This document shows positions 11,213 through 56,186 of a stretch of 64,000 bases of DNA, piece after piece (position 1 is the first letter of the stretch; each line of letters begins with the position of its first letter). The DNA comes from Selaginella moellendorffii (Eukaryota; Plantae; Lycopodiophyta). The translations under genes were made by a program, and so were the position numbers. A model generated the notes under the pieces. The model was not told the origin of the DNA, searched no databases, and saw only the letters and a program-made list of their open reading frames with translations. The stretch lies in the NCBI RefSeq assembly GCF_000143415.4, contig NW_003314287.1:270203-334202 (forward strand). Reading direction: 5' to 3'.

Positions 11213-13020
11213 TGTAAACGACTAATTTTTCCATTCTACTTTAGTCACTAAACCACACCTCTGACCATTTGGAGGAGTCTCTCTCACAACCTCCATAAGT
11301 CTTATTTCGGACTTGGGCTTGCTAGCCTCGAGAATGGCATCCCCACCACTCAACCTTTGCACATGGTCCAAGTGCTCCACGTGTCCGATCCCATGACCGA
11401 CACCCCAAAGTACCATTGACATAGCCGTCTATTACGCTAAGGCCATGCCCCTTTACCTTGGTCACACCGGTGGTCTAACACCACCTGCATCATAGTCCCA
11501 TCTCTCAAGGATTGGGCCATCTGTCCATGAGTGATCATTCTAGATCCACTCCTTAGTATCCTTAGGATGCCCACAAATATGGGGAATAGCCTTCCCCAAT
11601 ATCCCTTTAACAGTCCCCACCAAGATCCTTTTCTGTCCATGGCCGTGATCACCTACACTGCCACTGGATCAAGGCCCACAGGCCCGACTACTAAGTCCCA
11701 CTGTCCTCTAGGACTTCCTTACCACATGACCGTGTCATTGGTCACCACACCAGAGGATCATTGCTCTTCCTTTCCATAGTTTGGGACTTTGGGACAGCAT
11801 TTCGGAACACTGTAGCTCTAAGCGGGCCTCTTGGGTACTCTCCCCACCTTCCGTCTTTGGGTGCTCTAGCCATGGGCTTAGAGCGAGGTTCCGTTGAGCC
11901 ACGCCAGGTATCCAAGTAGGTAGTGCCACCCGCACTTGGATTGGGAGCATCGACCATTCGATCTCCCGGGGGAACTAGAGCCAGCTCTTGAACACTTCCA
12001 CTTATTGGTCCGTATTCACTCTAGTCTTGGACTTCCCAGTGGGCAGCTCATCACCCAACACTGGGTATAGCCTTTTTGGGCCAAACTGGCCTTTCCTGGC
12101 CAAACTAGCTCCATTGCAGTCCTCCCCCTTACTATACTTTTGGAGCTCACCAAACCCCCCAGGGTCTGGGAGACGAACGCTTTGGGCTTTCACCCTCTCA
12201 GACTCGAACTCAGACTCGGACTCGGATTCAGACTCAGACTCAGACTCAGACTCGGACTCGGGCTCGGGCTTGGTCTCGGCCTTGGCCTCGGTCTCGGTCT
12301 CGGTCCCGGTCCCAGTCTCGGTCTCGGTCTCGGTCTCGGTCTCAGTCTTGGTCTTGGTCTCGGTCTCAGTCCTGGTCTCAATCTCGACCTCGGACTCCAT
12401 CTCGGGTCCTTCTTGGACTCCATCTTGGACTCCATCTCGGACTCCGTCTCGGTCCATCTCGGACTCCATCTCGGGTCCATCTCGGACTCCGTCTTGGTCC
12501 ATCTTGGACTCCATCTCGGGTCCATCTCGGACTTCATCTTGGGTCCATCTCGGACTCCATCTCGGGTCCATCTCGAACTCCATCTCGGGTCCAGCTCGGA
12601 CTCCATCTCGGACTCCACCTCGGGTCCACCTCAGACTCCATCTCGGACTCCATCTCGGGTCCATCTCGGACTCCATCTTAGACTCCATCTCGGACTCCAT
12701 CTCGGGTACATCTCGGACTCCATCTCAGACTCCACCTTGGGTCCACCTTGGACTCCATCTCGAACTCCATCTCGGGTCCATCTCGGACACTTCCACGTGT
12801 CATGTGTTAGTCCTTTTTGGGTCCCTTTTTGGAGCCTTGTTTATTGGTTGCCTTGTGCTCGCTCCTCGAGCACTTTGTTGGGAGTTCCACTCCCGCTCTC
12901 GACCTTCCAAGTCGGAGCTTTTAGTCCAAACGTGTTATGCTCGTTTGGCTTTCGCCTTGGCCACTACCACGTGGCACCCTTCTGGCTCCACTTTGGGGCC
13001 TAGGGATTTTGTGTCTCACA
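11213..13020. mobile_element. Solo LTR (~1808 bp) nested in gag
   Basis: TGTAAAC...CTCACA termini with flanks GAAGG / AAAGG (5-bp TSD, one mismatch). Removing it rejoins the gag frame. Shares the motif ACTATACTTTTGGA...GGGAGACG.ACGCTTTGGGCTTTCACCC and a hexamer array with 25245-26832. Confidence 0.8.
12197..12790. repeat. Compound hexamer/12-mer tandem array (ACTCRG, TCTCGG, GGACTCCATCTC) inside the solo LTR
   Basis: Directly visible periodicity. It generates the low-complexity ORFs in several frames. Confidence 0.9.
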
Positions 13021-13924
13021 AAAGGATCCAGATAAGAACAAGTCCTACTTCATTGATGGCCTTCATAGTAAGAGCATGTAGCAACACTTGTGTCATTCTT
13101 AGCCTATAAAGAGTTTGGAGGAGCTCTTTGATGCGGCTCATTGACTTGACAATGACAAGCACAAGTCTCGCAAACGTTCGCGGAATCCTTCTGTCGAGAA
13201 TCATCATGATGCTTGTCATAGACACAAGGATGGGAACAAGCATCACAAATTGAAGTCTGTTCAAATAAAGTGGCACCATAGTGGCCACCGTTACTATGCT
13301 TCAGAGCACGATGAATGCTAGTACCACGCACGTCTTCAAGTACCTTACAGGCAATTTTCTATCAAAGCTTGTTTCTAGCATCTAGCATTGGTTGTTCTAA
13401 CACTTTCAAGAAGGTGAATATCCATGCAGGAGCAACCAAAGTTTACACGAATCACTGTCAAGCTTAGGTCGACGTGAGAGATGTGGCTGAGGCACACATT
13501 CTCGTGCACGAGGGGCCTAGCCCTTGTGTTGAGCTCTTTTTGGACTATCCAATCTCGAGAAAGTGAGTGATTAAAAGACCAATGTCTAGCTTTGTTTTGA
13601 CAATCCTGATCTTTTTTTGTTCTCTTTTGCATCTCCTTTGAATACTTGAACCAAGAAGCAGAGAATGAAAAGACATTGTCACGAACCCTTTTGTTAACAG
13701 TGACGTGTTTCCAGAGAGACGTATCTTGTTTTTTCATAGTTTTCTTTCATAGCTTTGGAACACAGGATGTGTTTCCGCTTATGGAGTTCCATCATATCAA
13801 GGTTTTTGTGGTGCTTAGAATTTATATGGTCTTCATTCTTATTCCAGTATCAGGAAATAGGATGAGGCTATGTTTATAAAGTTCTCTCTCGTATCTTGGT
13901 GAGTTGGCTTTTTACTTTCAATTG

Positions 13925-23062: not shown

Positions 23063-23208
23063 AAGATATAGGAATATGAATAAGCATAAACTAAGTGATT
23101 ACTCAAATTCAATTGTACAACAATTACTCCACCAAAAGATATAGGAATATGAATAAGCATAAACTAAGTGATTACTCAAATTCAATTGTACAACAATTAC
23201 TTCACCAA
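23063..23208. repeat. 73-bp tandem duplication (2 copies)
   Basis: AAGATATAGGAATATGAATAAGC...CAATTACT.CACCAA repeated at 23063 and 23136. Confidence 0.9.
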
Positions 23209-24841
23209 CATGTATACCCAATATCTTTGAGTATGCATTAAAGAGGTTAGCTATATATGATTAACACTCAATCGCAACTAAAGTGAAGACCATGACATAA
23301 ACTTATATTGGTATACAACCTCTTAATAAACAAAGCTATAGTACAAGTGCTAACATCTCAACCTCAAACAATTAAGTTGGATATCACCATCCTTAACTAC
23401 GGCACAAGGCAACTAAAACCAAATCAAAATCAGTGAGAGCTCACTACTCTCATAGAGTCTAATAAAATGAAAAATGCAATTTGCCACCAAATACAATGCT
23501 ATAAAGGAAAGGTACAAGGGTCACTTTTCTAAAAAAGTGCAATAGCCATTTTTCTACACCAACTTGAAACATTATTCAACTCAATTATCTTAGCCCCAAA
23601 AGTTAGCATCCCTTTTGGGTCGCATCATACAAACTATTTACTAATGTCTAAGCTAACTAAAATCAACTTTAACCTTTTCACTAGTTTATATTGGCTTATG
23701 AAAATAGAATGGTTTTTGAGCAAAATGATAAATAGATCAACCATTGAAAAAGTTTAAGAAAAATTGTGGAAAATTTTTCCATTTTAGAGAAAGAATAACT
23801 TTTAGTCTAGAAATATAAATTCTCATAACTCAACCAACTTCCTCCTACCAACAACTTTATATAGGTTCACCCTAACATAAATTTTCATGACCCAACAGTA
23901 TGTCTAATCATTGAACATCTTACCCATATTTTTTATATCTAATACTGACATCTGTAAAATGCAAATAAATACCCAAAACTTGATCATAAAGATTACATCT
24001 TCAGATATCCATATTGCATTAACACTCTTTTTCAATCACTCTCAAGATCTAATGTAAAACCAAAACATTAATAAAAAAAATTGACATGGAAAATCAAGTT
24101 CTAAAGAAAATTCCTTATCACTCAATATAACAATGCCACTTCCATTAGCACAAGTGCTAACAAAGTTAATGCTTTAACTACATACCTTTTCCATCCAACA
24201 ACCTACTTTATGTGCTAACAGATTTATCAACAAGCTATAGCAAATAAATGCCATAGCCTTTTCCATCACTAAATTCCCAAGGAACCAAGGTATCAACTCA
24301 AACTTAATATAATAAATCATTATTGAGAATTAAGTCAAAACTACTTCAATGTTATTACTTGCAAGTAGATTAGTTTTACTATCAACCACTTTGGGGTTAA
24401 TTATTATTTAATTAAGCAACTTCGTAAACACATTACTCACAATCATATGGATATGATATAGAAATCATAATAACTTAATCATCAATCGAGCAACACCATG
24501 AGCAATACCCATGTCACTACTACAAGGTTTATATGAGTATCAAATGCTAACCCAATTTAACAAAATACAACATAAATGTCATACCCCACCAATATAGATT
24601 TATAACATCCAATATTACTAAATTTGTTTATAACATAGATAGGCTCATACCACACTTTTTCCGACTAAACTCAAAACTAATTTAACATCAAGTTATTCAA
24701 GGAACAATAGCAAAGTTCCCTAGAAAAGCATTGAGCATTGTAACTAGAGTTATCAATAAGAAGCCTAGACAAAATGGTTTAGTGCTTCATTGTTATCCAT
24801 TCCATAATTCACCACTTGTAAAACCATTATAACCAACATGC

Positions 24842-25038
24842 TGTAAACACTCATGAGTTTGGACTTCCCGGGAGGTCACCCAGCCCAGTACTATTCAAAC
24901 CCAAGAACGTTTAACCCCAAATATCCCAAGACCCTTAACCGATTGGAAAAGGGGGTGCACTCTTGTTCATGGGCCCTTTCCCTCTATATTTGAACCCCTA
25001 TGGATCGTCTCTCAAGTCGTTCTCTTTGGTTGCTTACA
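24842..25038 (-). repeat. 3' LTR (197 bp) with 5S rRNA-derived domain at ~24861-24916
   Basis: Minus strand GTTAAACGTTCTTGGGTTTGAATAGTACTGGGCTGGGTGACCTCCCGGGAAGTCC aligns to the 3' half of plant 5S rRNA (A-box, IE, C-box). Confidence 0.92.
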
Positions 25039-25244
25039 ATCCACCACGCTTCCCTGCAAGTTCACGCCCTCGTGAACGGAAGCTGAGAGCCGCAGCTCTC
25101 CCGAGAGCCCCGCTCTCTTGACACCCTACCCCTCGGGTCGAGCCCAGTGGGAGCAAACTGGACCAGCCAGATGTCAATCAACATATGGTGTGATTCCCTT
25201 AGCCAACCAACAGAGTCGGACCTGAGACCGCTCCGATACCAAAT

Positions 25245-26832
25245 TGTAAGCCACAAATTTTTCTTTTCCAATTTGCCAGCTTACCTCGTCTATCCGACCA
25301 ACTCTGCCTTGGCTTGTGCTAAGTTCCCTCGCCAAGGTTCTAGCCTATGGTACCAGCTCCTACTTGGTCCTACTTGGTTTCAGCTACTCACTGCACGAGC
25401 AACGGAGTGTTAGCCATCCATCTACGGATTCCCAAATCTCTCCCAATCCCCCTCCCCGGGTTAGACTAGACTTAAGGTTTGGCTACACTCCCCGCAGGCA
25501 CAAGCAGCCAAGCACACCAAGCCTCCAGATTCCTAACACCTCTTGGTACCACAAGACTTGATCATGGAACCCTCTAAATCCCAAGCCTTGGGTGCAGCAC
25601 TTGCTTCGGGACCTCGGGGCGAAACACCGTGGCCTAACGGCTCGGTATGGGTACCTCTACCCCCGCACTTCCATCCCGAAGGGAAGGCCCAAGCCCCCGG
25701 AAGGGCGAGGACCAATGAGCCACAAGGTACTCAAGTGGGGCACCACTCCACCTGAGCCGGGAGCACCGCAGTCGGTTTCCCTTTCGGGAGTGGGAGCTGC
25801 TCTTGAGCACTTCCTTGGATGGCCCCTCTGGCACCAGCCAAGTCCATGCTCACTCCCACCCAAGGCCCCTCGGTCCCAGTCTCAACCTCAAGTCGGTTTG
25901 GAAGCCCAACTAGAGAGTCCCTTCAAAACTAGTTCCTAGACCTCACTATCCCTACTATACTTTTGGAAGCCCTTGCAGCCCCCCCCCCCCCCCGGGAGAC
26001 GCACGCTTTGGGCTTTCACCCCTTGACCCGTATTAGTATTTGGACTTAGTCTCTGGCTCGATCTCGGACCCGATTTCGGATCCGACTTCGGATTTGGTCT
26101 CGGACTCGATTTCGGACTCGATCTCGGACCCGATCTCGGACCCGACCTCGGACTCGACCTCGGACTCGGTCTCGGACCCGATTTCGGATCTCGGACTCCG
26201 TCTCGAACTCGGTCTCGAACTCGGACTCAAACTCGGTCCCCGAGTCGGTCTCGGACTCGATTCCGGACTCTATCTCGAACTCGGTCCTAGAGTCGGTCTT
26301 GGACTCGATCCTCGACTTGGTCCCATCCGATGAACTCTTTGTCATTTCGGTCAAGCTTTTGGGGATCCTTTAGCCTACGACATCTCGAGGAGTCGGTTCC
26401 TTACAACTCCACCACCCATAGAAGAAGTTTGATGCCCACATCGAACGTCTCGTTTTATCCTACGACTTGTTGACCATGTCTCCGGGGGCATCCCCCCACT
26501 TAGCGGTGTGCCTAAGTTAGCCTCCCCGGCCAAGAGCCCATGACAACGGAATATAGGTGTCCCTATACTCCTCACCTCACCACGCCCTAGTATGGGGTCG
26601 GGACTTGAACCCAGCCTTGCTTTACTAGGGGGTTGGGACTCGAACCCAACCTCCATAGAATACGTCTACGGATTCGACATCCCCGCGGGGAGTCGGGCGT
26701 AATGCCCTACGCCTGGTCGACCTATCCAACCCATGCTAATTAGCTTACCTTTGGCGCGCCTTCGGGTCCCAACATATGCCACTTGCTCAACTTTGCAAAT
26801 TGATATTTTTAATTGAATTTTGCATAAGTACA
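25245..26832 (-). repeat. Internal long LTR (~1588 bp) of the chromovirus moiety, with a hexamer array at ~26040-26330
   Basis: TGTA...TACA termini. It directly follows the chromodomain and is directly followed by a PBS. Shares motif order with the solo LTR at 11213-13020. No clear PPT at its 5' side. Confidence 0.65.
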
Positions 26833-27190
26833 TAGAGTTCTGCCTTGCAGAAATTCCTCCACTAGATCTCGCGCGTTCACTAGGTTCTCCTCCGGTTCCC
26901 ATGTTGCTTCGCAGTGTGGAAATCCTTTCCACTTCACATGGAACTCTCTCACCTCGCGTCCTTGTCGCTTGCTCTTGCGTGCATTGAGGATGGCCTCGAC
27001 TTCGTATTCCTCTTCCCCTTGGATAACCTCAGGTAAAGGTCTCACTTGGTCCTTGCGAAGCGGATCCTCAAAGTACGGCTTGAGTAAATTCACGTGGAAC
27101 ACTGGGTGCATCTTCCCCATCTCTCGAGGAAGTCGGAGTCGGTAAGCCACTTTACCGATTCGTGCCTCAATCTCGTAAGGCCCTGCGAAC

Positions 27191-27242
27191 CTGCTTAAGG
27201 AACTCAAGATCAATTCATTTACAGGAATACATGCATCTTTAC
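27191..27242 (-). other. Putative spliceosomal intron 2 in integrase (52 nt)
   Basis: CAA AG|GTAAAG...TTAAGCAG|G TTC GCA GGG CCT TAC. Removal restores KLTQRFAGPY (GPY/F motif). Confidence 0.8.
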
Positions 27243-27660
27243 CTTTGGGTCAACTTTCGGCTGATCCCACTTGCTAGTCTGAGGTTCTTGGTGTTCAGCC
27301 ACACCTTCTCCCCAGCTTGGAACTCTACATCCCGACGCTTCTGGTTCGCGTATTTGGTTTGCCTTTGTTGAGCCCGTTCCAAGGAATCCCTCACTAGATT
27401 CCAAATGCTAAGTCTTTCCGCCGTGAATGCCTCCACTGCGGGCAACTCTCCATGATACTCGGCCACGCCGAGTTCCACAGGACCTTCAATAGCTCGCCCA
27501 TTGATGACTTCCCATGGACTCACCCCGATACTCGAATGTGGTGAGTTGTTATAACACATTTCCGCAAGTCCCAAATGACTTACCCAATCGGTCTGGTCTC
27601 CCGAGACATAGCATCGCAAATAATCCTCCAGCTGCCTATTCACCCTTTCCGTTTGTCCGT

Positions 27661-27706
27661 CTGTCAAGAAGTGTTAGTGCCAACAACTTGACTCAATACC
27701 CCATAC
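27661..27706 (-). other. Putative spliceosomal intron 1 in integrase (46 nt)
   Basis: CAG ACA G|GTATGG...CACTAAC...TGACAG|AC GGA CAA, with a CTAAC branch point. Removal restores YHPQTDGQTERVN. Confidence 0.8.
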
Positions 27707-29982
27707 CTGTCTGTGGGTGATAGGCTGTGCTGAATTTCAACTTGGTGCGATACTGTTCCAGGAGAGTCCTCCAGAACCTACTGGTGAAGATCTTATCTCG
27801 ATCTGAGATGATCTCTTCTGGTCTTCCCCGCACTCGAACCACTTGTTCGAAGAACAGCTTTGCCACACCTTCCGCATCCACCTCCGTTGTGGTGGGTATG
27901 AAATGTGCCATTTTCGAAAATCGGTCCACCACCACGAATATCGCATCAAACCCCTTGCTTGGGGGGAGTCCCGTGATGAAGTCTATCGTAAGACATTTCC
28001 ACGGGCGATCTGGAATTGGGATGCTTTGCAACAAGCCCCCACTAGCCTTAGTCACGGCTTTTACCTGCTGACATGTTGGATATGTCTTTACATAGTCTTG
28101 GACGTCCTTAGCCATATCTGGCCAATGGTACTTCCTTTTGAGTAAGCCCATCGTCTTGGGCACTCCACCGTGTCCCGCAAGAGGTCCATCATGACACTCT
28201 TCTAAGGCCACCTTCCTTAGTTCCCCTTCTGGAACATACACCCTCGTTTGCTTGTAATAAATGAGTCCGTTACGTTCCGCATAGCCCGTTTTCTCTTCCG
28301 TTGGCAGCTCACCTCTCTGGTGAGCTTCCCGCGCCTCTAGATTCCTCAGCAACACTTCCTATGCTAGACCATCATTCTCATATGCTGTCCGCACATCGTC
28401 CCAGAAGGTTGCTGTTGCGCTGGATATTGCCAACCTCAAGCTCGCTTTTCGACTTAGCGCATCCGCCACGATGTTGCTCTTCCCAGGCTTGTACAGAATT
28501 TCGCAATCAAACTCGGCCAAGGCATTGGCCCACCGACCTTGTTTCCCTCTTAGGTCGGGCTGTGACAAGAAGTGTTTCGTTGCCACATTGTCCGTGTAAA
28601 CCTTGAAGTGTCTCCCAAGGTAGTGTCGCCACTCCTTGAGCGCCTTGACCACCGCAAACAATTCCTTCTCGTGGGCAGGCCACTTCCGTTGAGCCTTGTC
28701 CAGCTTCTTCGAGAAGAACGCTACCGGATGGTTGTCTTGCTTCAAAACTGCGCCCAATGCAAAGTCCGAAGCATCCGTTTCTACCTCAAAGTCCTTACCA
28801 AAGTCTGGTAATGCCAATACGGGAGCTTTCCTCAACTTCCCTTTTAGGTGGACGAATGCCGCCTCGCATTCCGCTGACCACACCATCTTCCCTTTTCCTG
28901 TTTGGTCCGTTAAGGGCAGGGCTACTCTCGAATAGTGTCTGATAAACTTTCGATAGTAGTTGCATAGCCCCAGGAATGCCCTCAACTCGTGTACATTGGA
29001 TGGTCGCTCCCATTCCTAGATCGCTTGGACCTTCTCCGGGTCCACCTTGAGCCCGTCCTGGCCCACCACATGCCCGAGAAACTTTACCTCTTGTTGAGCA
29101 AAGTCACATTTGCTCTCTTTAGCATACAGCTTGTGTTCCCTTAGTTTCTCAAACACCTTCGCCAAGTGTTCGGCATGCTCCTCTAGCGTCTCGCTATAGA
29201 TCAGGATGTCATCGATATAGACGACCACGAAGTGATCCAGATAGGGTACAAAGATGTGGTTCATTAGCGCCGAAAACGTTGCCGGCGCATTACATAGCCC
29301 GAAGGGCATCACCAGAAACTCAAAGCTCCCAGACCTCGTTCGACAGGTTGTCTTCTCGACATCTTCCTCGGCTACCCTGATCTAGTAGTATCCTGACCTT
29401 AGGTCAATCCTCGAGAAGTATTTTGCCTTTCCCAACCTATCGAACAGGTCTTCAATCCTTGGCAAAGGGTACTTGTTCTTCTTTGTATACTTGTTGAGCA
29501 ACCGGTAGTCTATGCACATGCGCATAGATCCATTTTTCTTTTTCACAAATAACACCGGCGCCCCATACGGCGACTTGCTCAACCTAACATACCCTTTGCC
29601 CACCAACTCCTCTAGTTGGCACTTGAGCTCCTTGAGTTCTTTTTCGTTCAAACGATAAGGGGGACGAACCACTGCCTCAGCACCCTCGACCAGTTCAATC
29701 TTATGTTCTATCGGTCGTGCTGGGGGTAGCCCTGCCGGTAGCTCCTCCGGCATGGTATCCTGGAATTGGTCCAACACCCGCTGGATCACTAAAGGTACTT
29801 CTTCCATTCCTGTCTTTTTGTCACTCTTCACCGAGAGTAAGCACAAAAAGGCTGCCTTAGTTCCTTTAGTGAGTTGTCCTCTCGTGGACACCAGGTTTAA
29901 GCAGGAATCTTTGGCCTTGCCATCTCCCAGCAATTCGCCTCTATCCTTCGCTAGAATTGAGGAAGAGGCTCCGATACCAAAT

Positions 29983-30179
29983 TGTAAACACTCATGAGTT
30001 TGGACTTCCCGGGAGGTCACCCAGCCCAGTACTATTCAAACCCAAGGACGCTTAACCCCAAATATCCCAAGACCCTTAACCGATTGGAAAAAGGGGTGCA
30101 CTGTTATTCATGGGCCCTTTCCCTCTATATTTGAACCCCTATGGATCGTCTCTCAAGTCGTTCTCTTTGGTTGCTTACA
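29983..30179 (-). repeat. 5' LTR (197 bp) with 5S rRNA-derived domain at ~30002-30057
   Basis: Minus strand GTTAAGCGTCCTTGGGTTTGAATAGTACTGGGCTGGGTGACCTCCCGGGAAGTCC, followed by the PBS. Confidence 0.92.
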
Positions 30180-33053
30180 CATGCATCAAGGTAGGGACTC
30201 TTGATTGCATGATGTGAACATAAGCAATAAATTCATACTTCGTTACTAAATCATCTTTCAAAGAAAAAAAGATGATTTGACCAAACCTCAAACTTACATT
30301 CACATTGTTTTCAGTTCAATCTAAGAAAAGTTTATGAGAGAGCATAGGCAATGACTATTTGAACCAATAGACTAATCCCTATAGTCTTGATTGATCCACT
30401 TATAATTATTATTATGAATTTCCATTGCAATGGATTCCAAGCTTTCATTTTCTACATCTTTCAACTGTGTAAAAATATTTTTTGCAAAACCCTTTTCGTA
30501 TTGGAAATCAATTTTTGCAAACTATAGTCTTTACTCCACCAAACCCTACACCTATTTAGGACTTTCATACATGCTTAGAAAGGATCCACTAGTGCCATGT
30601 TAAATAGCTATGGACTAGTCTATTTGCCACTATTAGCAAACTTAGGGAAGGTTTACTAAATATGGAATGACGCTAGATTGTGAATTTAGGCATAGAACAA
30701 ACACTATTGTGTTCAGGACAATATTTACATTCTGTAGATATGCCAAATTATCAAATCTAAACACTTTCCAAATAGCAATTAAGAATTAATATAAGATGCA
30801 TAATAGCAAAGGGTTTGGCAAACATGGTAAACTATCATCTAGCAAATATTGATGAACCAAACTCAATATCACTGGGTTCCCAATATTAACAAGTTCAAGT
30901 CAACAATATAAATTTCTCATCACTATGTCAAATATGCTTGACTAAATAACAACTTAAGATTTCTTTCCTTAGTGCCCTTTCAGTTTAAGTGCACATTTGA
31001 TGACTAATTTCTCAACCTTAGGCAAAGACTGATAAAGGGTCTAACAATACCAACCTTCAGTCGTCGTGGCAGTAAGGAAAGAATATCTTAAAGAACTAGC
31101 TGATAGGTAATTTTCAATACACATAATCACATTTACAACATGAACAAATACAGTAGTGAAGCAAGAATGAATGATATAAATCATGAAGTGAAGATGAGCA
31201 TAATAAGTTTGAATAAAACATTCAGCCCTAATGTAGTGAAGTCAAATGAATGCAATGATAGAGTGAGGTTGGTGAAATGAGAATGAATGCAATGTGTCTG
31301 AATAGAACTAATGCTTCAAAACATTTTTTTTCCTTTAAGGAGGGGTAAAAAAGATATGAAAGACAAATTGAATGAGTCTGATTTTCTATATGCAATGTTA
31401 GACAAAGATAAAGAAGTAAATTCTACTTACAGTTATGAGTTTGAGTTAATAGTGATTTCGGAGAATTATCGGCAGGCAAACTTATAATACAAAGTATATC
31501 ATTTATTGCAATGGCATTTCATGGACTATAGTAATTCCCAAAATCCTTTACTTTGATTCAAAATTATAACTTGAAAGTTAGTTTAAACATTTGGCAGTTG
31601 TATATGAAGTGGTTTATTAAGATTTTGTAGTCAATTGATATATATGTCATGGCTTTGGGTTTTATTTTAATCACGGTTATCAATAGCTTTGTTAGTGGTT
31701 TTATAAGATCTTTAAATTTTTGTGGTAGTTTATAATTTCCTAACAAAAGCTTTAAATTTTCAATTGATTTATAGTTATTATTTCTTCATCCTCCAAAGGG
31801 GAGGATGGTGTAAAATTTGTAAATACATATATTACCTTAGCTAGGTAATACACTAATTATAGTACTATAATATATAAACCATCCATTTGGGATTAAATTT
31901 AATCTATCCATTATTGTATATAAGTAGAGGTCTAAACCTAAATTGATATACTTATTCCTATATCTTTATAAGTGGAAATATACCATTATATTGTTATATA
32001 TCTTCTTATAACATTCAATGAATTTATTAATTAATACAAACAATATAATCACCCTTAAAAAATTAAATTTATTACTTTTATAATATTTTTATTTTAGAAC
32101 TTTAAGAGTGGAAGAAATTTAAGACATTTTGAATGCATATTATTAAAATTAACCATTCATTTAATTATTGATGAATGTTTGCATTCTAAATTAAAGACAA
32201 TGTAACATATTTTACTGTAATATTTCCGATTGACTTCTTGAGGATAGAAACTTATTGTTCCTGAAAGACTTTTGGTCTTCTACTCTTCTGTGAGTTCCTC
32301 AATTTGATAAATATATTCGATATATATATTTAATAAATATATATATAAATAAATGTTATTGCTTATAAATGATGAACCACATCATAATTATTAAATTTAT
32401 TTTCTCTTAATAAATTTAACTAAATAGTTGCGAAGCAGAGCCTTCACCCGCTCCACCTCCTCCTCCTCCTCTCTCCTCCTCTTCTGATCCGCCATGAATT
32501 ATAAAAACTTATTCTTAAATTGAGATTTTTAAATGGTTTTCAACTGAAATTCTAAATGTTCACTTGTTGTAAATAAAAAATAGTGAAAATACTCTATGCA
32601 TCTTGTGGTGTTTTAGATTCTGGGAGACCAAGGCAACATACATCAGGCTGCTGTGAAACCTAAACCCTCAACAGCTAAGTTGACAGATAATATCCAACTT
32701 GTCCATTTCTTTTCTGGTCTTCTCCTGAACTTTACAAAGAAATACCTTTATTGGAGCCTTCCCATGCGGTTGTTTCCTTGCAGTAGATCCCTTCCCACAC
32801 AGCCAATGTGGATCTTCATCCCAGCAAAGAGCAAAGTGATCCAAGGTAAGAAAACCCGTCACTAGTAACTAGAGTATCTTTTACCCAAACGTCCCTGATA
32901 TCTAAGAGAATGGATGAAAGCGAATGGAAGAAATGGATCTTGGATACACAAGGAGATCTTGGTTAATAGAGACACGCAACAAACATAAATACTAAGACCA
33001 TTTGCATTTCTGCTTTGAGCGCTTTAAACAAAATGATAAGATTCTTTTACTTG

Positions 33054-35626
<2,573 letters not shown>

Positions 35627-35811
35627 AGCCAAACAGGGAGATTTAAACCCTTTTTAGTCAAACGAACGATCACGATAGAGCCAATCGAACGGTCAGTTTT
35701 AAAAAAGAATGACGGTTATGATCAAAGATAGTCGTCACAAAAATTAGGGTTTTTATTTTGAGGGTTTCTCTGCTCGCTGGCAATGCTGCTGGGATTCTAA
35801 TAGGCGATCCG

Positions 35812-37679
35812 ATGGAAGAGAAGCCGTCCGGCAGCGGCAGCGGCAGCGATGGCGGGATCGAGGAGCCGCTGCTCAAGGACAGTGAGGCGAAAGGAACTCA
35901 CGAGGATCACGAGGATGAGACGGGTAAGGCACCGATCGAAGAGCAGGGTTTCAGGGGCTACAACTATGGCGCCAGGCCATACAGGGACATCGCATTCGCG
36001 ATCGTGTTCATCCTCGCGGCTCTAGCTACGCTTGGATTCGGCATTTTCGCAATCGTCCACCACAATTCCGATTTCCAGTGGTCGGAGCCGGCTCACTATC
36101 TTCGCAACCAGAGCCGATGCACGGTCGCCCATTCCAATCCCTCCGCGAAGCTGGATTTCCTTCTAAGTCACCCGGGCAGGATCTCGTCGTGGAGAACGCT
36201 TGCGAGCGTTGTTCTTCCGGAGAGAGTGTCCAGCAGCCACGGCTTTGCGGTGGCACTCATCTCCTCCCTCGCCGTCACTCTCGTGCTGAGCGTTCCAATC
36301 GTTCTAGCTCTCGTCTGGCTGCTCCGCCACTACACCAAAGAGATTGTTTACGTGAGCCTCCCTCTCTTCATCCTCTTCCCCGTGGCTCTCAACATCCTTT
36401 GGTTCGTGGCTTGCGCCAAAGACAGCGAGTGCCAAGACAGCGTCAGTCTCCCCGTTCGCATCTTGTTCTTCGTCTTCATCTTCGCCTTCTGTGCGATCAT
36501 AGTCTGGATCATCTTCGCCAACTTTGCTCGCGTTGAGCTCACCGTGAGAGTCATCACCACAGCGTCCGAGGCTCTTTACAGGAATCTCTCGCTGTTGCTA
36601 GTGGTTCCCAGTTTGTCGCTGGTACTGCTTGTCTTCTACGTCCCTGCCGCGTTCTTCCTGGTCTTCTCTTACATGAATGGGAAGTATGTCCCCAATGCTG
36701 ATTTGAGAGATCGACCTGAGCTTCCCTGCGGCAGAGGCACGAGTCGGGAGTGCTGCGAGTGGAACGTTGAGAGCTGGGTTCCCGCTTACATGATTTTGGC
36801 TGCTTTGTTTGTTCTCTGGGCGACTTGTGTAGTTGCACAAGCTAAAGTTTACACCATTAGTGGTACCATCAGTCAATGGTACTTTGCAGAGGTTGATACG
36901 CACACGATTGGAGCTATGAGAAGATCGCTTGGGTAAGCTACGCTCTCTTTTCTTTTTTGTTAGAAGGAAAAGTTGATGGAACTTCTTTCTTTGTGCTTTC
37001 AGGCAAGCATTTAGTTCCTCGTTCGGGACTATATGCTTCTCGGGCTTGATCTTTGCGTTTGTGCGTCTCATTCGCAATGTGGTGGACACTGCCAAGGACA
37101 GCCAGGAAGGTGAGGGTCTGGCTATGTCTTTCCTGCGCTGTTGCTACGAGTGGCTACTCCAAGCCATTGAATTTGTCACCAAGTTCACGGTCGACTTCGC
37201 TGCGATCACTGGAGAAGGCTTTTGTTCGTCTGCTGCAAGAACCTACGAGCTTTTGAAACGCAATCTTCTGTCGACGGTGTTTGTGGAGGTGATTTCCACC
37301 AGGCTCCTCGGTGGCGTGATGGTTGTAGTCTCGATCATCTACGCAGTTGCAGTAAGTCTATCGAGGTTTTTCTCTGTTCGTAATTGTCTGAGTGTTTTAT
37401 CCACAGGTTTGGGGTATTCTACTTGGTACTACCAGTCTTGACAGCGGTATCTACATTGTCACTGTGCTATCCGGCGCTTTGCTACTGCTGATACTCTCCA
37501 TTTATATCGCGATCATGAACATCATCGTCGACACTGTTTACATCTGCTATGCAATGGACAAAGACCGAGGCGTGGTCTCCAAGCCAGAAGCTCATGACGT
37601 CTACGTTCTTCTTCCGGTATCGCAAGACGAGAGAGCCTCCTTGGCTGTTCCACAGAGCAAAGACGACTCCCCCGTCTGA
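35812..37679 (+). CDS. Choline transporter-like (CTL/SLC44) membrane protein; exons 35812-36932, 37003-37351, 37407-37679
   Basis: Multiple TM segments; RPYRDIAF, YTISGTISQWYF, SSFGTICFSGL, FAAITGEGFCSSAARTYELLKRN and IVDTVYICYAMDKD. Confidence 0.88.
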
Positions 37680-47898: not shown

Positions 47899-49315
47899 TT
47901 GATCCGATGTTGCTCGGTTCTTTGATTCTAATGCTCTCTTTTCTGGCACATACATCCACCCACGCCTTGCCGCAAAAGGGTCCATAGGAGGAAGGGAATT
48001 CCCCACAGAGCACCAATGTAGATAGAGCTCATGTCCATGGAGCTTGATGGAGTGACTAGGGTACCCAGGTTTCATAACTGTTACAAAAGGAAGATTCTTA
48101 AATCTCAAACTTGATTGACGAAAGATAATTAACACAAGGTTGACAAAGTCTGAATTTTACATTAGAATATGCCATGAAAATTAGAGCAATCCATATGGGT
48201 GTGACCTTCATCTTACCACCACGCTCTACAAAGTTCTAAAAATATAGTAAAGATAGTGAAGTTTAAGAACCATCAACTGTCACTGTGGAGATAATATCTA
48301 TCAATATCATATTGTAAACATTAATGTTTGATTGGGAAAAGATTCGAACCCGACGCCAACTCCTAACGGTAAACCAGACTCCATGTGGCATCCGGCGTGG
48401 AGTGCTGACGTGTCAAGCACGTTGGATACCACTGTTGAGAGACTTTGGCCGGCCGTTCTTTTCGTCTTGGATTTGACGCCCCGGGGGGCCTTTCTTCTCT
48501 CTTCCGCCATGCTTCTAGGGTTCCGGGAGGCGACGGGGCAAGAACAGCGCATCCCCCATGGATCGATTGATTCGCTCAGGTACGGATGGCGAGCTCGGCG
48601 CTTCGCTGCATTCTCTGGCAATCTCTGGGAAGATTCTGTAGTAATCTGACAGGATTCTCTGGGTGTCTCGATGGAATCTTAGGTTCTTTGCGATGCTCGG
48701 TTCTTGATCCGCAACTTGCGATTGCAGCTCCATCGAGGTGAGAGATTCCATTCCTCCGCAAACGATGCCTATTGGATGATTTCTTGCTTTCTTTGTGTCA
48801 CGTATTGGACAAATTTTTTTTTTTCTCTTCTCGTGAGTCGTGGTATTGTGTGATTCATAGCTTGCACAGGACAAGATTTTTCGTCTTTTGCAGTCGTCTT
48901 GTCATGCTTCGGTGCCAAGTTGCTGACTTGCTGTTCATTAGGACAAAACCATAGCTCGATGATCTTTTGATCTTTCTTTCTTCCATGGTTCATGGATTCT
49001 TTGCTTCTTCTTCTGTTGCTGTGATGGCTTGACTTGTCGATTGTTTTTCCTGTTGTTAAGTGCTTAGCGAAGCAAGCGACTTTGGCTTTTTTCGTTTCTT
49101 TTTTTTTTCTCCGTGTATATCACTCTGGTTTTTTTTTTCTTCGTTCAGTTCATGTGTCCTAATGCATTAGTGCCGTGTTGCAGGCGCATATATTTTGGAG
49201 ATTGGTAGGACCTTCTGACAAGACAGCACCAATGCATTGTGGACGCTCATCAAACTCTGGCAGCAACGATTCTAGTCGCCCTAGGAGAAGAAAAGCAGGC
49301 GAGGACTCGTGAGTG

Positions 49316-50560
49316 ATGGAGGAAAGACAGGCCAGGGGGCGAAACTTTGCGAGAAAGTTCCTGGGCTTTATGTCCTCCAAGAGAAAGCGAGATGAAGAAA
49401 AGAAGCGGATGGATCTGTGGAAAGCTATGCGAGATTCTAGCGTGGAAAGACTAGCTGCGGTCATTGCCTCGGCAAGAACGGAATTTGGCGATCAGCTCGA
49501 CGATCTATGCTCAGATGCGGAAGGCGTCCTGCAGAGGTTACTCCGAGAAGGCAGAGCAACAGGTACTCACAGAAAGATTACGCTAAGGGAGAGATTGTTA
49601 CTAGCGGATATAGAGGCGAGTAGTCAACAGCAGCCATTACTGCCGCAAGAAACGTCCACCGCAGTACCGAGAGAGAATTGCTCCGGGAACTCGGAGATTG
49701 TACCAGCAGCAACAGCAGCAGATGCTCCTCCGGTGATCCAAGCCGTGCTGACTTTAGTGAGGCCGGCATCCACGACCGAGATCCAGCAGCAGTCCAATCC
49801 AGAAGTCGCCGGAGGAGAAGGGGCTTCTTTAGCCGCACAGCCGCTGTCGGGAAATCAAAACACGACCAGTGGAAGAAGACTTCTCAGTGCACTGCTCTGG
49901 GAGGAGCGCAACTTAGATGGTCCGGATCAGGGGCTGACGGAGGGATGGGTCGCATTTGGCGTCACTGCTCCGATCCACTTCGACCACTCGAGGAGCCAGT
50001 CCGTGGCCAGCGAGCTGAACAGGGTCGGCTTCCACCGCCCGAGCGCATCACTGGACGCTCCACCGGAAGCAGCAGCAGCAGCAGCAGCGGCGGCGGCGGC
50101 AGCGGCAGCTCCCACTCGGAGTTTAAGTTCGTTCATGACTTCCACGCCGAGTTCTCGAGACGCTAGTACCGCCACAGTTCCCGAGACTCCAATGCGGGTG
50201 TCTCTCATGTCCTTGCTCCGGGAGGCCGAGGAGGGAGGAAGCGGGATCATCTTCATGAACAGGCAAATGATAGACAGGAACAGTGGTGGCGGTGGCGGTG
50301 GCGGTGCTGGCGGCGTAGCTTTCGAGTCCCCGGCCAAGGAAGCCACAGGACTTACAGGAGGAGGAGGATCAAACGTAGTAACAGGGGACGGGATAACGAT
50401 GGAACAGACGTGCTGCGTTTGTATGGGACGCCAAAAGGGGGCGGCCTTCATACCGTGCGGCCATACCTTTTGTAGGAGGTGTTGTAAAGAGCTCCAGCAA
50501 GCAAGAGGGAGCTGTCCACTTTGCAACAAGGAGATAAGCGACGTCCTCAATCTTTACTGA
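49316..50560 (+). CDS. C-terminal RING-HC E3 ubiquitin ligase
   Basis: CCVCMGRQKGAAFIPCGHTFCRRC...CPLCNKEISDVLNLY, with RVSLMSLL and ITLRERL motifs. Single coding exon. Confidence 0.9.
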   Translation: MEERQARGRNFARKFLGFMSSKRKRDEEKKRMDLWKAMRDSSVERLAAVIASARTEFGDQLDDLCSDAEGVLQRLLREGRATGTHRKITLRERLLLADIEASSQQQPLLPQETSTAVPRENCSGNSEIVPAATAADAPPVIQAVLTLVRPASTTEIQQQSNPEVAGGEGASLAAQPLSGNQNTTSGRRLLSALLWEERNLDGPDQGLTEGWVAFGVTAPIHFDHSRSQSVASELNRVGFHRPSASLDAPPEAAAAAAAAAAAAAAPTRSLSSFMTSTPSSRDASTATVPETPMRVSLMSLLREAEEGGSGIIFMNRQMIDRNSGGGGGGGAGGVAFESPAKEATGLTGGGGSNVVTGDGITMEQTCCVCMGRQKGAAFIPCGHTFCRRCCKELQQARGSCPLCNKEISDVLNLY

Positions 50561-51018
50561 GCGATGGTGGTAAGCTTTTGGAGCTCTTGTTTTTTTTCTC
50601 TTGATCTTTGCTCTAGCTTGTGATAGATCAAACCAAGGCCTGGGCCTTGGTTTGAATGGAGGATTGAATGGAGGAGGATTGAATGATCGAAGTCATTCTT
50701 TTGGCAACGGTTTCGATTTCTCGCTCGAGCTGGACTGAGACGATGGGTGTCAAAAGACGCGAAAGCTCCGTACTACTGTTGGTCCTCGAGCCTGGGAGTC
50801 TCGACGGTGGTGATTCTGCCACGTTTCAGAAACCAACGGCCAGGATGTCGTGATTAGAATGTGATTTAAAACTTTCGTGCTGTGCTTCCCCATAACAAAT
50901 GCGAGAAGAATCAGACTCATAGATCCTTTTCTTTGCTTGAAAGTTTTGGCTCGCGCCCTTGTAGCTACGAGAATTGCCTAGGGTTCTTGATCAGGTGATT
51001 GCCCTCTCTGGTTAGGAG

Positions 51019-54000: not shown

Positions 54001-54508
54001 ATCCACACGCGTTATCGGAAAGCTCTACAGATCCATCCGAGAAAGCCACAGGGACACCAACACGAGCCCTCTGGTGTCCGAGCGTTCATTCGACCAGCAA
54101 TACGATCGGGCGCTCGTCGTCCAGGGGTACCAGAGTCACCTGGAAGAGGCAAAGTTCTTCAAGGAGTGCTACGACAGCAAGCTGACGAGCATTCTCAATC
54201 ACTACAAAGTTAGCGAGGCCGAGATTATGAGTGGAAGCGTCCGGAGTTTGGCGAGGTACTCGAGGAGGAGGCAGGGCGACGCCATGGCTCGAGTGGTGCT
54301 GGCTGCCAAGGCTCTGGTGAAGGAAGCTCGGGGATGGTTTGACGATGGTGGCGAGATCACTGAGAACGAGGCCTGTGCCAAGGCTTTTGCGTGGTATCAC
54401 GTAACTTATCATCCGGAAGCCAGGAAGAAGAGTGATCTCCTGAGTTTTCCATGGGTGGTCTCCGACAAGCTTGTGGCGATTAAAAAGAGGAACTCCGCGA
54501 GATCATAA
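51019..54508 (+). CDS. RNA-dependent RNA polymerase, RDR-alpha (RDR1/RDR2-like); introns 51550-51609, 53496-53547, 53699-53755
   Basis: N-terminal RRM; SNRVTRHF, FLAFSASQLR, KCAARMGQSFS, YCFSDGIG, SAFQIRYGGYKG, KNPCLHPGD, catalytic SGSDLDGD, AVDFPKTG and WYHVTYHP. Confidence 0.95.
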
Positions 54509-55790: not shown

Positions 55791-56186
55791 TTATACTAAT
55801 GTTGATAAACATGATTGGAAGCCAAATCACAAAAATAAATACTAACAATCTGTCTTTGACAACAATAAATTTACTGAAGTTAGGAACTAAATGATGTTGA
55901 GGAATTTTTTGTATAAATCTTGCCATAACAAAGCCTAATAACCTTAATTTCTTCCTCTTTAGATTTACAATCCCCAAACCCGCCACCAAAGCCTTAGAAA
56001 GAGTTTAGTGAATTATTTAAAATAAATATAAATACATCATTTTGTACAGTATAATTTTCTTAAAATAAACGTTGAATTAAACAATTAATAGTTTGACAAA
56101 ATGATGACATGATTTTCAACTATGACTTGTAGAAACTACACGTAACCTCGAATCTCGACTTCATGCATTAGCAGAATTCCAATCCA

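Follow-up and report, generated by a model that had tools for sequence, protein, structure and literature searches.

Within the 64-kb stretch of Selaginella moellendorffii DNA analysed here (the window), an element of 5338 bp is best read, on balance, as a decayed chimera, in which a 600-bp TRIM with 5S-like LTRs carries a chromovirus interior lacking gag and protease together with a whole 1.6-kb chromovirus LTR, and which reverse transcriptase likely produced by switching between co-packaged RNAs.

Structure of the element and its 5S-like LTRs

A host gene assigns the window to Selaginella moellendorffii. The element occupies positions 24842-30179 on the minus strand and is bounded by 197-bp LTRs and a CATGC target-site duplication (TSD). 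Its order on that strand is 5S-LTR, primer-binding site (PBS), RT-RNaseH-integrase-chromodomain, 1.6-kb LTR, the LTR-PBS junction once more, a 191-bp TRIM interior, polypurine tract (PPT) and 5S-LTR, with the following features:

24837-24841: left copy of the TSD, CATGC on the plus strand, identical to 30180-30184
24842-25038, minus strand: 3' 5S-LTR, 197 nt, TG..CA, identified as a direct-repeat family
24851-24971, minus strand: 5S-rRNA-like core of the 3' LTR (Rfam RF00001 and box motif)
25039-25229, minus strand: TRIM interior, 191 nt, non-coding (sequence and contigs of sets X15 and X17)
25039-25057, minus strand: PPT-like purine-rich tract of ~19 nt adjoining the 3' LTR, at the end of the TRIM interior
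25230-25249, minus strand: second 20-nt junction copy, with long-LTR tip TTACA, spacer ATT and PBS, TGGTATCGGAGC (PBS 25230-25241)
25245-26832, minus strand: internal long chromovirus LTR, 1588 nt (3' end shown by contigs, 5' edge inferred)
26812-27190, minus strand: pol exon 3, SH3-like integrase part and chromodomain (Pfam SH3_Tf2-1, Chromo)
27191-27242, minus strand: mini-intron 2, 52 nt, GT..AG (sequence and contigs)
27243-27660, minus strand: pol exon 2, middle of the integrase (frame arithmetic)
27661-27706, minus strand: mini-intron 1, 46 nt, GT..AG, with CTAAC near its 3' end (sequence and contigs)
27707-29920, minus strand: pol exon 1, protease-region tail, RT, RNase H, integrase zinc finger and core
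29915-29920, minus strand: breakpoint of the gag-protease deletion, inside a 6-nt microhomology (contig departures)
29921-29967, minus strand: chromovirus leader, 47 nt (the same leader follows long LTR and PBS in other copies)
29968-29987, minus strand: first 20-nt junction copy, with 5S-LTR tip TTACA, spacer ATT and PBS, TGGTATCGGAGC (PBS 29968-29979)
29983-30179, minus strand: 5' 5S-LTR, 197 nt (repeat, Rfam, box motif)
29992-30112, minus strand: 5S-like core of the 5' LTR (Rfam RF00001 and box motif, 2 mismatches)
30180-30184: right copy of the TSD, CATGC, identical to 24837-24841

Pairwise comparison of the outer 5S-LTRs gave 192 of 197 identical positions without gaps, and the last 8 bases of both are a variant private to the window copy. 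The 20-base repeat is 100% identical between 25230-25249 and 29968-29987, and cutting out 25250-29987 (5338 - 4738) leaves a 600-bp TRIM (197 + 206 + 197). These LTRs, the TSD, the 20-base repeat, pol and the 600-bp arithmetic had all been described in the earlier note, and each was found where it had been placed. A repeat search detected no further copy of the TRIM interior within the 64-kb window. Within the long LTR, 12-nt units repeat in tandem over ~26057-26322 and a run of G lies near 25985-26000. The 5' edge of this LTR at 26832 is set only by a TG start beside the end of the chromodomain frame.

The Rfam 5S_rRNA model matched both LTRs over model positions 1-120 with 31.9 bits (3' LTR) and 28.4 bits (E-values 0.0011 and 0.0087), below the gathering score of 38, and no 5S_rRNA is listed for the element at Rfam gathering thresholds. 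The published Cassandra motif, box A and box C 18 nt apart, was recovered from both LTRs at exactly that spacing, the 5' LTR showing 2 mismatches and the 3' LTR showing 3, with 1-2 departures in each box; it was absent elsewhere in the 64 kb, its chance expectation was 0.02 per window, and 0 of 100 shuffles produced two matches. The 5S likeness of the LTRs noted earlier is real and covers a full-length core, but it is weak, with a score under Rfam gathering. A T-run lies ~20 nt into the core (T5 in the 5' LTR, T4 in the 3' LTR), and all 9 RNA reads over the LTR in set X22 ran in one direction. The 5S-like core may act as a pol III promoter, with transcription ending at the T-run, as in Cassandra. 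The PBS adjoining the 5' LTR matches the Cassandra PBS TGGTATCAGAGC at 11 of 12 positions (G for A at position 8), and the exact 12-mer is present in loose ends of other copies (X22, X4 and X17).

Cassandra elements, as Kalendar reportedly described them in 2008, are TRIMs of ferns and angiosperms with 5S-LTRs and a pol III promoter. The plain form of the present element is likewise short and non-coding, at 600 bp against a range of 563-860 bp published in PMC7215508 and PMC10853983, and has in common with Cassandra a sense-oriented 5S-like core within both LTRs, an 18-nt interval between box A and box C, an initiator-Met tRNA PBS beginning 12 nt past that core (8 nt in ferns) and a 5-bp TSD. 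The T-run ~20 nt into the core lies near the 18-bp R given for Cassandra by Kojima 2024 (PMC10886601). The element differs in its LTR of just 197 bp, in a 5S match below the Rfam threshold, in the 1-2 departures of each box from the published motif and in its host, a lycophyte, whereas PMC7215508 and PMC10853983 report Cassandra from monocots, dicots and ferns. The likeness was compared in the 5S part alone, and the LTRs may reflect an independent 5S capture, as for Ajax.

Two parent families and the decay of the window copy

Public contigs contained both stand-alone TRIM junctions and long-LTR chromovirus junctions, in agreement with the earlier reading of the element as a fusion of two families. 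Thirty loose ends of set X1 at 25230 led from the long-LTR tip through the PBS into the leader, with 28 of 30 letters like 29938-29967 (by eye), and set X4 supplied the mirror case, in which record 21 and a loose end at 29987 led from the leader through the PBS to the long-LTR tip. Leader contigs arriving from the PBS side ran into the long-LTR tip and not the 5S-LTR (X1 and X4 loose ends at 29987). Because the long-LTR tip is followed by PBS and chromovirus leader in other copies, the chromovirus has long LTRs of its own, and 25245-26832 does serve as a terminal LTR elsewhere in public contigs, a point on which the earlier note had staked its interpretation. For the chromovirus family two long LTRs were accordingly found, with tip, PBS and leader in X1, X2 and X4 contigs and the PPT side in the window; the window copy carries one long LTR only. 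The 5S-LTR tip was followed by PBS and TRIM interior in loose ends at 25244 in X15 (4) and X17 (5), and the 5S-LTR also led to the TRIM interior in one X1 joint (25217>29999) and in 6 of 9 X22 RNA reads. Other copies thus form a plain TRIM (<~1 kb, two short LTRs, PBS, PPT), although the window copy itself is coding.

Both families are very abundant (X1 gave 88,216 contigs, with similar depth over both bins) and both occur in RNA-like runs (X15 records 13 and 14; X17; X22). This abundance of both parent forms in public contigs showed that the long LTR genuinely belongs to the chromovirus. Canonical TRIM copies have the tip GCTTACA followed by TTTGGTATC[A/G]GAGC, and the chromovirus LTR has the tip GGCTTACA followed by ATTTGGTATCGGAGC, so that the canonical forms differ at one spacer base and, in many copies, also by A versus G in the PBS. 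At 30179, 38 loose ends of X1 represented empty-site paralogues in which the element was replaced by sequence 25/30 like the left flank 24806-24835 (by eye), showing that the insertion lies in a repeated site. The near-identical outer LTRs with their common private 8-base tip, the perfect 5-bp TSD and the paralogous empty sites together indicated a single insertion.

These junctions also bear on a different history, in which a chromovirus lineage possesses 5S-LTRs natively and the 600-bp TRIM is a deletion derivative formed between duplicated PBS-bearing sequences. Gao 2016 (PMC4717578) proposed for rice OsajLTRA10/OsajRetroS10 that the TRIM is a deletion derivative of a coding element. Large elements are described there that are coding, have the LTRs of a TRIM and show, at the breakpoint, a duplicated 25-bp sequence containing the PBS; so is SmoLTRA4, a 4,373-bp gypsy element of Selaginella with TRIM LTRs. 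OsajLTRA10/OsajRetroS10 and SmoLTRA4/SmoRetroS4, the latter from the same species as the present chimera, resemble it in placing TRIM LTRs round a coding interior and in the PBS-bearing repeat that flanks the extra DNA. As presented by Gao 2016, however, these elements have no foreign internal LTR and no 5S in their LTRs and are read as TRIM parents, and SmoLTRA4/SmoRetroS4 is a different family with LTRs of 104 bp versus 197 bp here. Since the interior of the window copy contains a complete foreign LTR, the joint between 5S-LTR and leader is absent among the pieces listed, and the leader reached from the PBS side leads to the long-LTR tip, we consider a native coding element highly improbable.

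Five of the six stop-to-stop pol pieces matched Pfam RVT_1, RT_RNaseH(_2), Integrase_H2C2, rve, SH3_Tf2-1 and Chromo, giving RT, RNase H and integrase in order and then a C-terminal chromodomain, as in a chromovirus. The frame runs a short way into the long LTR, where it stops at a TAA. The integrase is split by two GT..AG inserts of 46 nt and 52 nt, whose excision brings the three pol pieces into a single frame; in public contigs both were skipped exactly in X15 record 13, whereas mini-intron 2 was retained in X4 record 24 and mini-intron 1 in X17 record 18 and X4 record 27. At the positions that we take to form the aromatic cage, the residues of the chromodomain are Y, W and F. Non-seed-plant chromoviruses share the RT-RH-INT-chromodomain order and a tRNA-type PBS, and aromatic-cage residues are reported for their clades, in excerpts of Neumann 2019 (PMC6317226) and Novikova 2010 (PMC2864245) that mention no mini-introns for them. 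Tcn1 mostly self-primes, and the tRNA PBS here argues against it.

The earlier note had further proposed the element as a candidate autonomous partner of the TRIM, and this part of its interpretation fails for the window copy, which is interrupted by the two mini-introns and is not autonomous because gag and protease are lost (a Pfam search of the pol pieces found neither) and pol exon 1 has three in-frame TAG stops (29382-29384, 29016-29018 and 28359-28361). At the gag-protease gap, leader-side contigs departed from the window at 29915 and pol-side contigs at 29920, both kinds being seen in X1, X2, X4, X15 and X17. The leader contains an ATG (29921-29923) that does not share the reading frame of pol. 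Protein searches returned no intact gag-pol relative, the best identities being 60% and 53%. Only the chromovirus family, not the window copy, can be the candidate autonomous partner.

Origin of the chimeric junctions

No listed contig crossed the chimeric 5' junction at 29988-29990 (0/24 among the pieces listed, with 4,728 further pieces outside that list), a 5S-LTR joined to the chromovirus leader was not found among the pieces listed, and depth dipped at 29988-29990 in X1, X2 and X4. Since no listed contig bridges this junction, the chimera looks single-copy and is seen in the assembly alone; it looks not to have amplified, with no sign of spread. The junction left uncrossed by every listed X1, X2 and X4 contig, and a best DNA run containing just 0.64 of the sampled words of the stretch, are what would be expected had the assembly, at the 20-base repeat, wrongly routed a plain TRIM locus into and out of a chromovirus copy. 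We regard such an artefact as very unlikely, because it needs two matched false joins at a repeat far below the overlap accepted by any assembler, the window contains no N, the structure is precisely what reverse transcription would produce, contigs of high-copy repeats are short, and a hole in coverage proves nothing.

In the template switch that we favour, minus-strand DNA primed on TRIM RNA would copy the 5S-LTR, PPT and TRIM interior up to the PBS, where its PBS-complementary end, instead of stopping, would pair with a chromovirus RNA packed alongside, at the near-identical PBS of the latter. Copying would then proceed through U5-R and, after the usual R-to-R jump, through U3, PPT, pol and leader until it reached the PBS of the chromovirus, at which TRIM plus-strand strong-stop DNA (5S-LTR and PBS) would anneal and complete a chimeric DNA of the order 5S-LTR-PBS-chromovirus interior-long LTR-PBS-TRIM interior-5S-LTR. 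An integrase would insert this DNA with a 5-bp duplication, and the gag-protease deletion at the 6-base microhomology would have come from another switch or been lost afterwards. Sabot and Schulman 2007 (PMC1950507) recognise a switch between co-packaged RNAs by an internal LTR together with a TSD and outer LTRs that are near-identical, and their complexes likewise have three LTRs, with one TSD round the whole. In those complexes both partners belong to a single family (Angela, Squiq or Opie) and are linked through R, whereas the present element unites, at the PBS, a TRIM with a chromovirus whose LTRs are unrelated to those of the TRIM. Tandem arrays, formed by 5 of 8 Selaginella TRIM subfamilies in Gao 2016 (PMC4717578), are the homologous version of the same product.

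The same order, with the TRIM's TSD kept, is predicted exactly if a crossover in the shared 20 bases brought a 1-LTR circle of the chromovirus into a resident 600-bp TRIM, or converted that TRIM from a chromovirus copy in tandem, in which case the families need share only that sequence and not a particle. The exchange points do fall within the 20-nt identity, LTR elements are well known to give rise to extrachromosomal 1-LTR circles and to LTR-interior-LTR copies in tandem, and tandem TRIMs are recorded for Selaginella. We nevertheless judge DNA recombination rather unlikely, if a serious contender: 20 bases are very short for homologous recombination in plants, the gag-protease deletion still requires a second event, and the features that Sabot and Schulman 2007 treat as diagnostic are all present, though compatible with a circle crossover. 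Because DNA crossing over within these 20 bases would yield an identical sequence and TSD, co-packaging is unproven; we infer it, together with the template switch.

A candidate helper for the TRIM

The chromovirus family, we infer, mobilises the TRIM, and the matched LTR tips and PBS favour this reading. On the other side, many plant LTR elements have an initiator-Met PBS and TG..CA tips, and only ~7 of the 20 shared bases are informative. Helenus and Ajax ('TRIMp3', Kojima 2024, PMC10886601) are likewise TRIMs with an LTR derived from a small-RNA gene, Helenus-1_SMo being from the same species, and their helper was inferred from PBS type, TSD length and common interior sequence. Helenus LTRs are tRNA-derived, however, Ajax comes from nemerteans only, and neither is tied to a helper by a physical chimera (PMC10886601).

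It is possible, and we propose it only tentatively, that the chimera is the fossil of one particle that packed the RNAs of a 5S-LTR TRIM and a chromovirus. If so, this abundant chromovirus would be the first autonomous family named as mobiliser of a Cassandra-type TRIM, Cassandra-type elements would be moved back to lycophytes, and the helper would be an odd one, unable to make integrase and chromodomain unless two mini-introns are spliced out. A co-packaged origin would thus point to the chromovirus family as the long-sought helper of these tiny non-coding TRIMs.

Architecture and setting of the chimeric element

The element joins a TRIM, a 600-bp non-coding element bounded by 197-bp LTRs with a 5S-rRNA-like core (5S-LTRs), to the interior and one long LTR of a chromovirus. 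Its parts, read 5' to 3' along the minus strand, are as follows.

Features of the element
30179-29983, minus: 5' 5S-LTR, 197 nt
29979-29968, minus: 12-nt PBS TGGTATCGGAGC, preceded by the spacer ATT (3 nt)
29967-29921, minus: leader, 47 nt
to 26812, minus: pol frame, with protease-region tail, RT, RNase H, integrase zinc finger and core, SH3-like part and chromodomain
26832-25245, minus: long LTR, a 1588-nt TG..CA block with a 12-nt tandem array
25244-25230, minus: second spacer and PBS, identical to the first
between second PBS and 3' 5S-LTR, minus: TRIM interior, 191 nt, non-coding, with a purine-rich tract at its end
25038-24842, minus: 3' 5S-LTR, 197 nt
24837-24841 and 30180-30184: CATGC target duplication, on both sides of the whole element

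The earlier note had described this order, the repeats, the target duplication and a 600-bp remainder, and its description was correct in sequence: 25230-25249 and 29968-29987 shared 20 identical bases, and removing one 20-base repeat with the intervening DNA left 600 bp. Pfam matches were obtained in 5 of the 6 stop-to-stop pieces of the pol frame, and the outer LTRs differed at 5/197 positions, every one within the 5S-like core. GC content was 52% in the element versus 34-36% in the surrounding AT-rich DNA, and blastn and tblastn found no further copy of the TRIM, the long LTR or pol within the window. We conclude that the element is a genuine, well-formed structure in which two separate, abundant families are joined.

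We placed Logan contigs of coded public sequencing runs on 24600-30400 (88,216 from X1, possibly DNA; 621 from X4; 23 from X15 and 315 from X17, both RNA by guess only) and, in a second placement, on 29860-30060 (2,450 from X1, 2,283 from X2, 17 contigs from X4 and 9 raw RNA reads from X22). At 30179, 38 loose ends of X1, that is, contig parts leaving the window sequence, continued not into the element but into a stretch matching the left flank 24806-24835 at 25 of 30 letters. They represent paralogous sites that lack the element and have only one CATGC, and the element inserted into repeated sequence. The AT-rich flanks 24600-24841 and 30180-30400 are repeated in the genome, with X1 depths of 54,178 and 223,036.

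Contig depth around the chimeric 5' junction (left bin; bin 29986-29992; right bin)
X1: 168,531; 69,719; 372,482
X2: 6,149; 1,813; 10,157
X4: 59.7; 30.5; 71.7

The chimeric 5' junction at 29988-29990 was crossed by none of the 24 pieces listed (X1, X2 and X4 contigs and X22 raw RNA; 4,728 further pieces lay outside this list). Together with the fall in depth in bin 29986-29992, this indicated that the chimera is not a multi-copy family, and the window chimera is defective and apparently unique. A single-copy junction would be invisible at the depths of X1, X2 and X4, and the coverage hole was counted neither for nor against the assembly. Mis-assembly at the 20-base repeat is very improbable, as it needs two matched false joins there and the chimera is built exactly as a product of reverse transcription would be.

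Close to the element lie an RNA-dependent RNA polymerase gene (RDR-type, two long frames), a xyloglucan fucosyltransferase-like gene, a RING-finger gene and a choline-transporter-like gene, at 51016-54508, 56172-57779, 49313-50560 and 35722-36936; the 535-aa frame at 56172-57779 showed 99% identity to a fucosyltransferase of Selaginella moellendorffii. A full-length U6 spliceosomal RNA gene occupies 59326-59428 on the minus strand (110.3 bits), and a tRNA scan found no tRNA gene in the window. A tandem array at 12197-12788 (12-nt unit CTCGGACTCCAT, ~35 copies) was 68-70% alike to the long-LTR array at 26057-26322 and may be what is left of a related LTR; both strands carry long open frames at 11979-13109. 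At 23063-23208, a 73-nt unit is present in two tandem copies of 98% identity.

Parent families and the 5S likeness of the LTRs

Past 25230, contigs with the long-LTR tip and PBS went on into sequence that agreed, by eye, with the leader (29938-29967) at 28 of 30 letters (30 loose ends of X1). Past 29987, contigs with the leader and PBS went on into the long-LTR tip, both in X1 and in X4 (record 21 and its loose end, 14/15 alike). These continuations in both directions indicated that long LTR, PBS and leader form the normal 5' end of the chromovirus, so that the case considered in the earlier note, of a long LTR never found terminal elsewhere, does not hold in X1 and X4. Plain TRIMs likewise exist apart from the chimera. 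Contigs with the TRIM interior and PBS ran beyond 25244 into the 5S-LTR tip (four in X15, five in X17), one X1 contig linked 25217 to 29999 across 38 letters of other sequence, and in 6 of the 9 X22 RNA reads the 5S-LTR was followed by an exact TGGTATCAGAGC and then by the first part of the TRIM interior.

Both families were very highly and comparably abundant, and both were present in the RNA-like runs. Summed contig depth in X17 (RNA-like) was 48,199 over the TRIM interior (24988-25181) versus ~5 over pol (26900-29800), and in X1 (DNA-like) about equal over the two intervals; this may point to very abundant TRIM RNA, although contig depth is a poor measure.

The last 8 bases of both 5S-LTRs, TGTTTACA (24842-24849 and 29983-29990), were private to the window copy. 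Other TRIM copies (contigs of X1, X2, X4, X15, X17 and X22) left the window sequence at 29991 and 24850 and ended in GCTTACA, an exact inverted repeat of the LTR start TGTAAGC that also matches the long-LTR tip.

At gathering thresholds, Rfam reported only the U6 gene in the window and no 5S match. With E-value thresholds, both LTRs matched positions 1-120 of the 5S_rRNA model at 31.9 and 28.4 bits (gathering score 38), the box C half being well preserved and the 5' half loose. Using the box A-18 nt-box C motif of Cassandra as printed in the available text of Kalendar 2020 (PMC7215508), we found matches in both LTRs (2 mismatches in one, 3 in the other; chance expectation 0.02) and no further match in the window. 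The 5S-like core is in sense orientation and ends 9 nt short of the LTR tip and 12 nt from the PBS, compared with 8 nt in fern Cassandra in the same text; a T5 or T4 run ~20 nt inside the core is close to the 18-bp terminal repeat of Cassandra RNA in the part of Kojima 2024 (PMC10886601) at hand. A 26-base LTR word gave 0 matches in a metagenome scan. From these sequence features we file the TRIM as Cassandra-like.

Defects and putative introns of the chromovirus part

The earlier note had called the element a candidate autonomous partner. The window copy cannot be autonomous: gag and protease were absent in a Pfam search of its stop-to-stop pieces, pol contains three in-frame TAG stops (29382-29384, 29016-29018 and 28359-28361), and the leader ATG is out of frame with pol. 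Gag-protease is deleted in the window copy: among contigs of other copies, those entering through the leader part from the window sequence at 29915, those entering through pol do so at 29920, and the two kinds have the intervening 6 bases in common. At two of the stops, TAG presumably replaces Q of the motifs GYHQIR and IQ.W, and the stops are probably C-to-T decay at CAG. Differences between the window copy and other copies were mostly transitions (188 of the 235 change kinds listed for X1). Reading TAG as a sense codon, suggested by all three stops being TAG, was dropped, since C-to-T change at CAG suffices and the window's host frames are long under the standard code.

Two GT..AG inserts interrupt the integrase on the minus strand.

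Inserts in the integrase
27661-27706, minus: GT..AG insert, 46 nt
27191-27242, minus: GT..AG insert, 52 nt

By coordinate arithmetic, removing both brings the three pol pieces into one frame through to the chromodomain. A 2,500-nt X15 contig aligned to 29459-27707, 27660-27241 and 27188-26862 in a gapless record, skipping both inserts exactly, and contigs of X4 (records 24 and 27) and X17 (record 18) retained the inserts. Depth in X15 was zero on both flanks of the element, which suggests that this run is RNA. If so, production of the integrase tail and chromodomain in the chromovirus family depends on splicing out two mini-introns, and the genomic RNA that is copied is unspliced. No mention of integrase mini-introns was found in the accessible portions of the literature on such elements. 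Two protein searches for longer relatives gave best identities of 60% and 53%, and no full-length gag-pol of the chromovirus family was seen.

Origin of the chimera and its bearing on the TRIM helper

With one step added, the established scheme of reverse transcription in retroviruses yields the observed order, and we lean towards a template switch between co-packaged TRIM and chromovirus RNAs. Minus-strand DNA primed on the TRIM RNA would extend to the TRIM PBS, and its end would then anneal to the chromovirus RNA, a second template with an almost identical PBS. Copying of U5-R, an R-to-R jump and copying of U3, PPT, pol and leader as far as the chromovirus PBS would follow, where TRIM plus-strand strong-stop DNA would anneal. 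The predicted product, 5S-LTR-PBS-leader-pol-PPT-long LTR-PBS-TRIM interior-PPT-5S-LTR, would have identical outer LTRs and enter the genome by one integration. Elements with a target duplication, near-identical outer LTRs and an internal LTR, features that our chimera shares, are ascribed to a switch between co-packaged RNAs in the text available of Sabot and Schulman 2007 (PMC1950507). Tandem TRIMs, reported for 5/8 Selaginella subfamilies in the portion of Gao 2016 (PMC4717578) at hand, would be the homologous version of the proposed switch product.

If a resident TRIM had instead crossed over, as DNA, with a 1-LTR circle or a tandem copy within the shared 20 bases, the identical sequence would result, with the target duplication kept; we regard this as possible, though less likely, and the sequence of one copy cannot separate an RNA-level from a DNA-level origin. 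Nesting of a whole chromovirus in a TRIM, followed by deletion, was rejected, since it would demand additional steps on top of that PBS identity.

Which family mobilises the TRIM, that is, acts as its helper, is a related question, for which the chromovirus is a good lead and not a demonstration. The link is favoured by the physical fusion of the two, by the match of canonical tips and PBS (TRIM GCTTACA / TTTGGTATC[A/G]GAGC versus chromovirus GGCTTACA / ATTTGGTATCGGAGC), by the comparable, very high abundance of both families and by the occurrence of both in RNA-like runs. Three points count against the link: many elements have an initiator-Met PBS and TG..CA tips, which leaves only ~7 of the 20 shared bases informative; protein searches showed no intact gag-pol of the chromovirus family; and there is a single chimera. 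Because the host genome is small and sequenced, the helper question is testable. In the text seen of Kalendar 2020 (PMC7215508), Cassandra has '(unknown) autonomous retrotransposon partners', and the accessible part of Kojima 2024 (PMC10886601) gives no indication of which autonomous family mobilises it. According to the available text of Gao 2016 (PMC4717578), TRIMs have large coding relatives in which a PBS-bearing sequence is duplicated; that of Maiwald 2024 (PMC10853983) reports coding remains in no Cassandra. The fusion of a Cassandra-like TRIM to an abundant chromovirus family, expressed to judge from the RNA-like runs, supplies a concrete helper candidate.

In the same portions of these papers, Cassandra is placed in monocots, dicots and ferns, not gymnosperms (Maiwald 2024, PMC10853983), 8 TRIM subfamilies are given for Selaginella, with 5S sequence in no TRIM besides Cassandra (Gao 2016, PMC4717578), and only the tRNA-derived Helenus-1_SMo is named for Selaginella (Kojima 2024, PMC10886601). 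We found no report of a 5S-LTR TRIM in Selaginella in the accessible literature on Cassandra and Selaginella retrotransposons, Repbase and subscription papers aside. Our results suggest that 5S-LTR TRIMs occur in lycophytes, beyond the published range of monocots, dicots and ferns; either their origin would then reach back to the base of the vascular plants, or 5S sequence would have been captured independently a second time.
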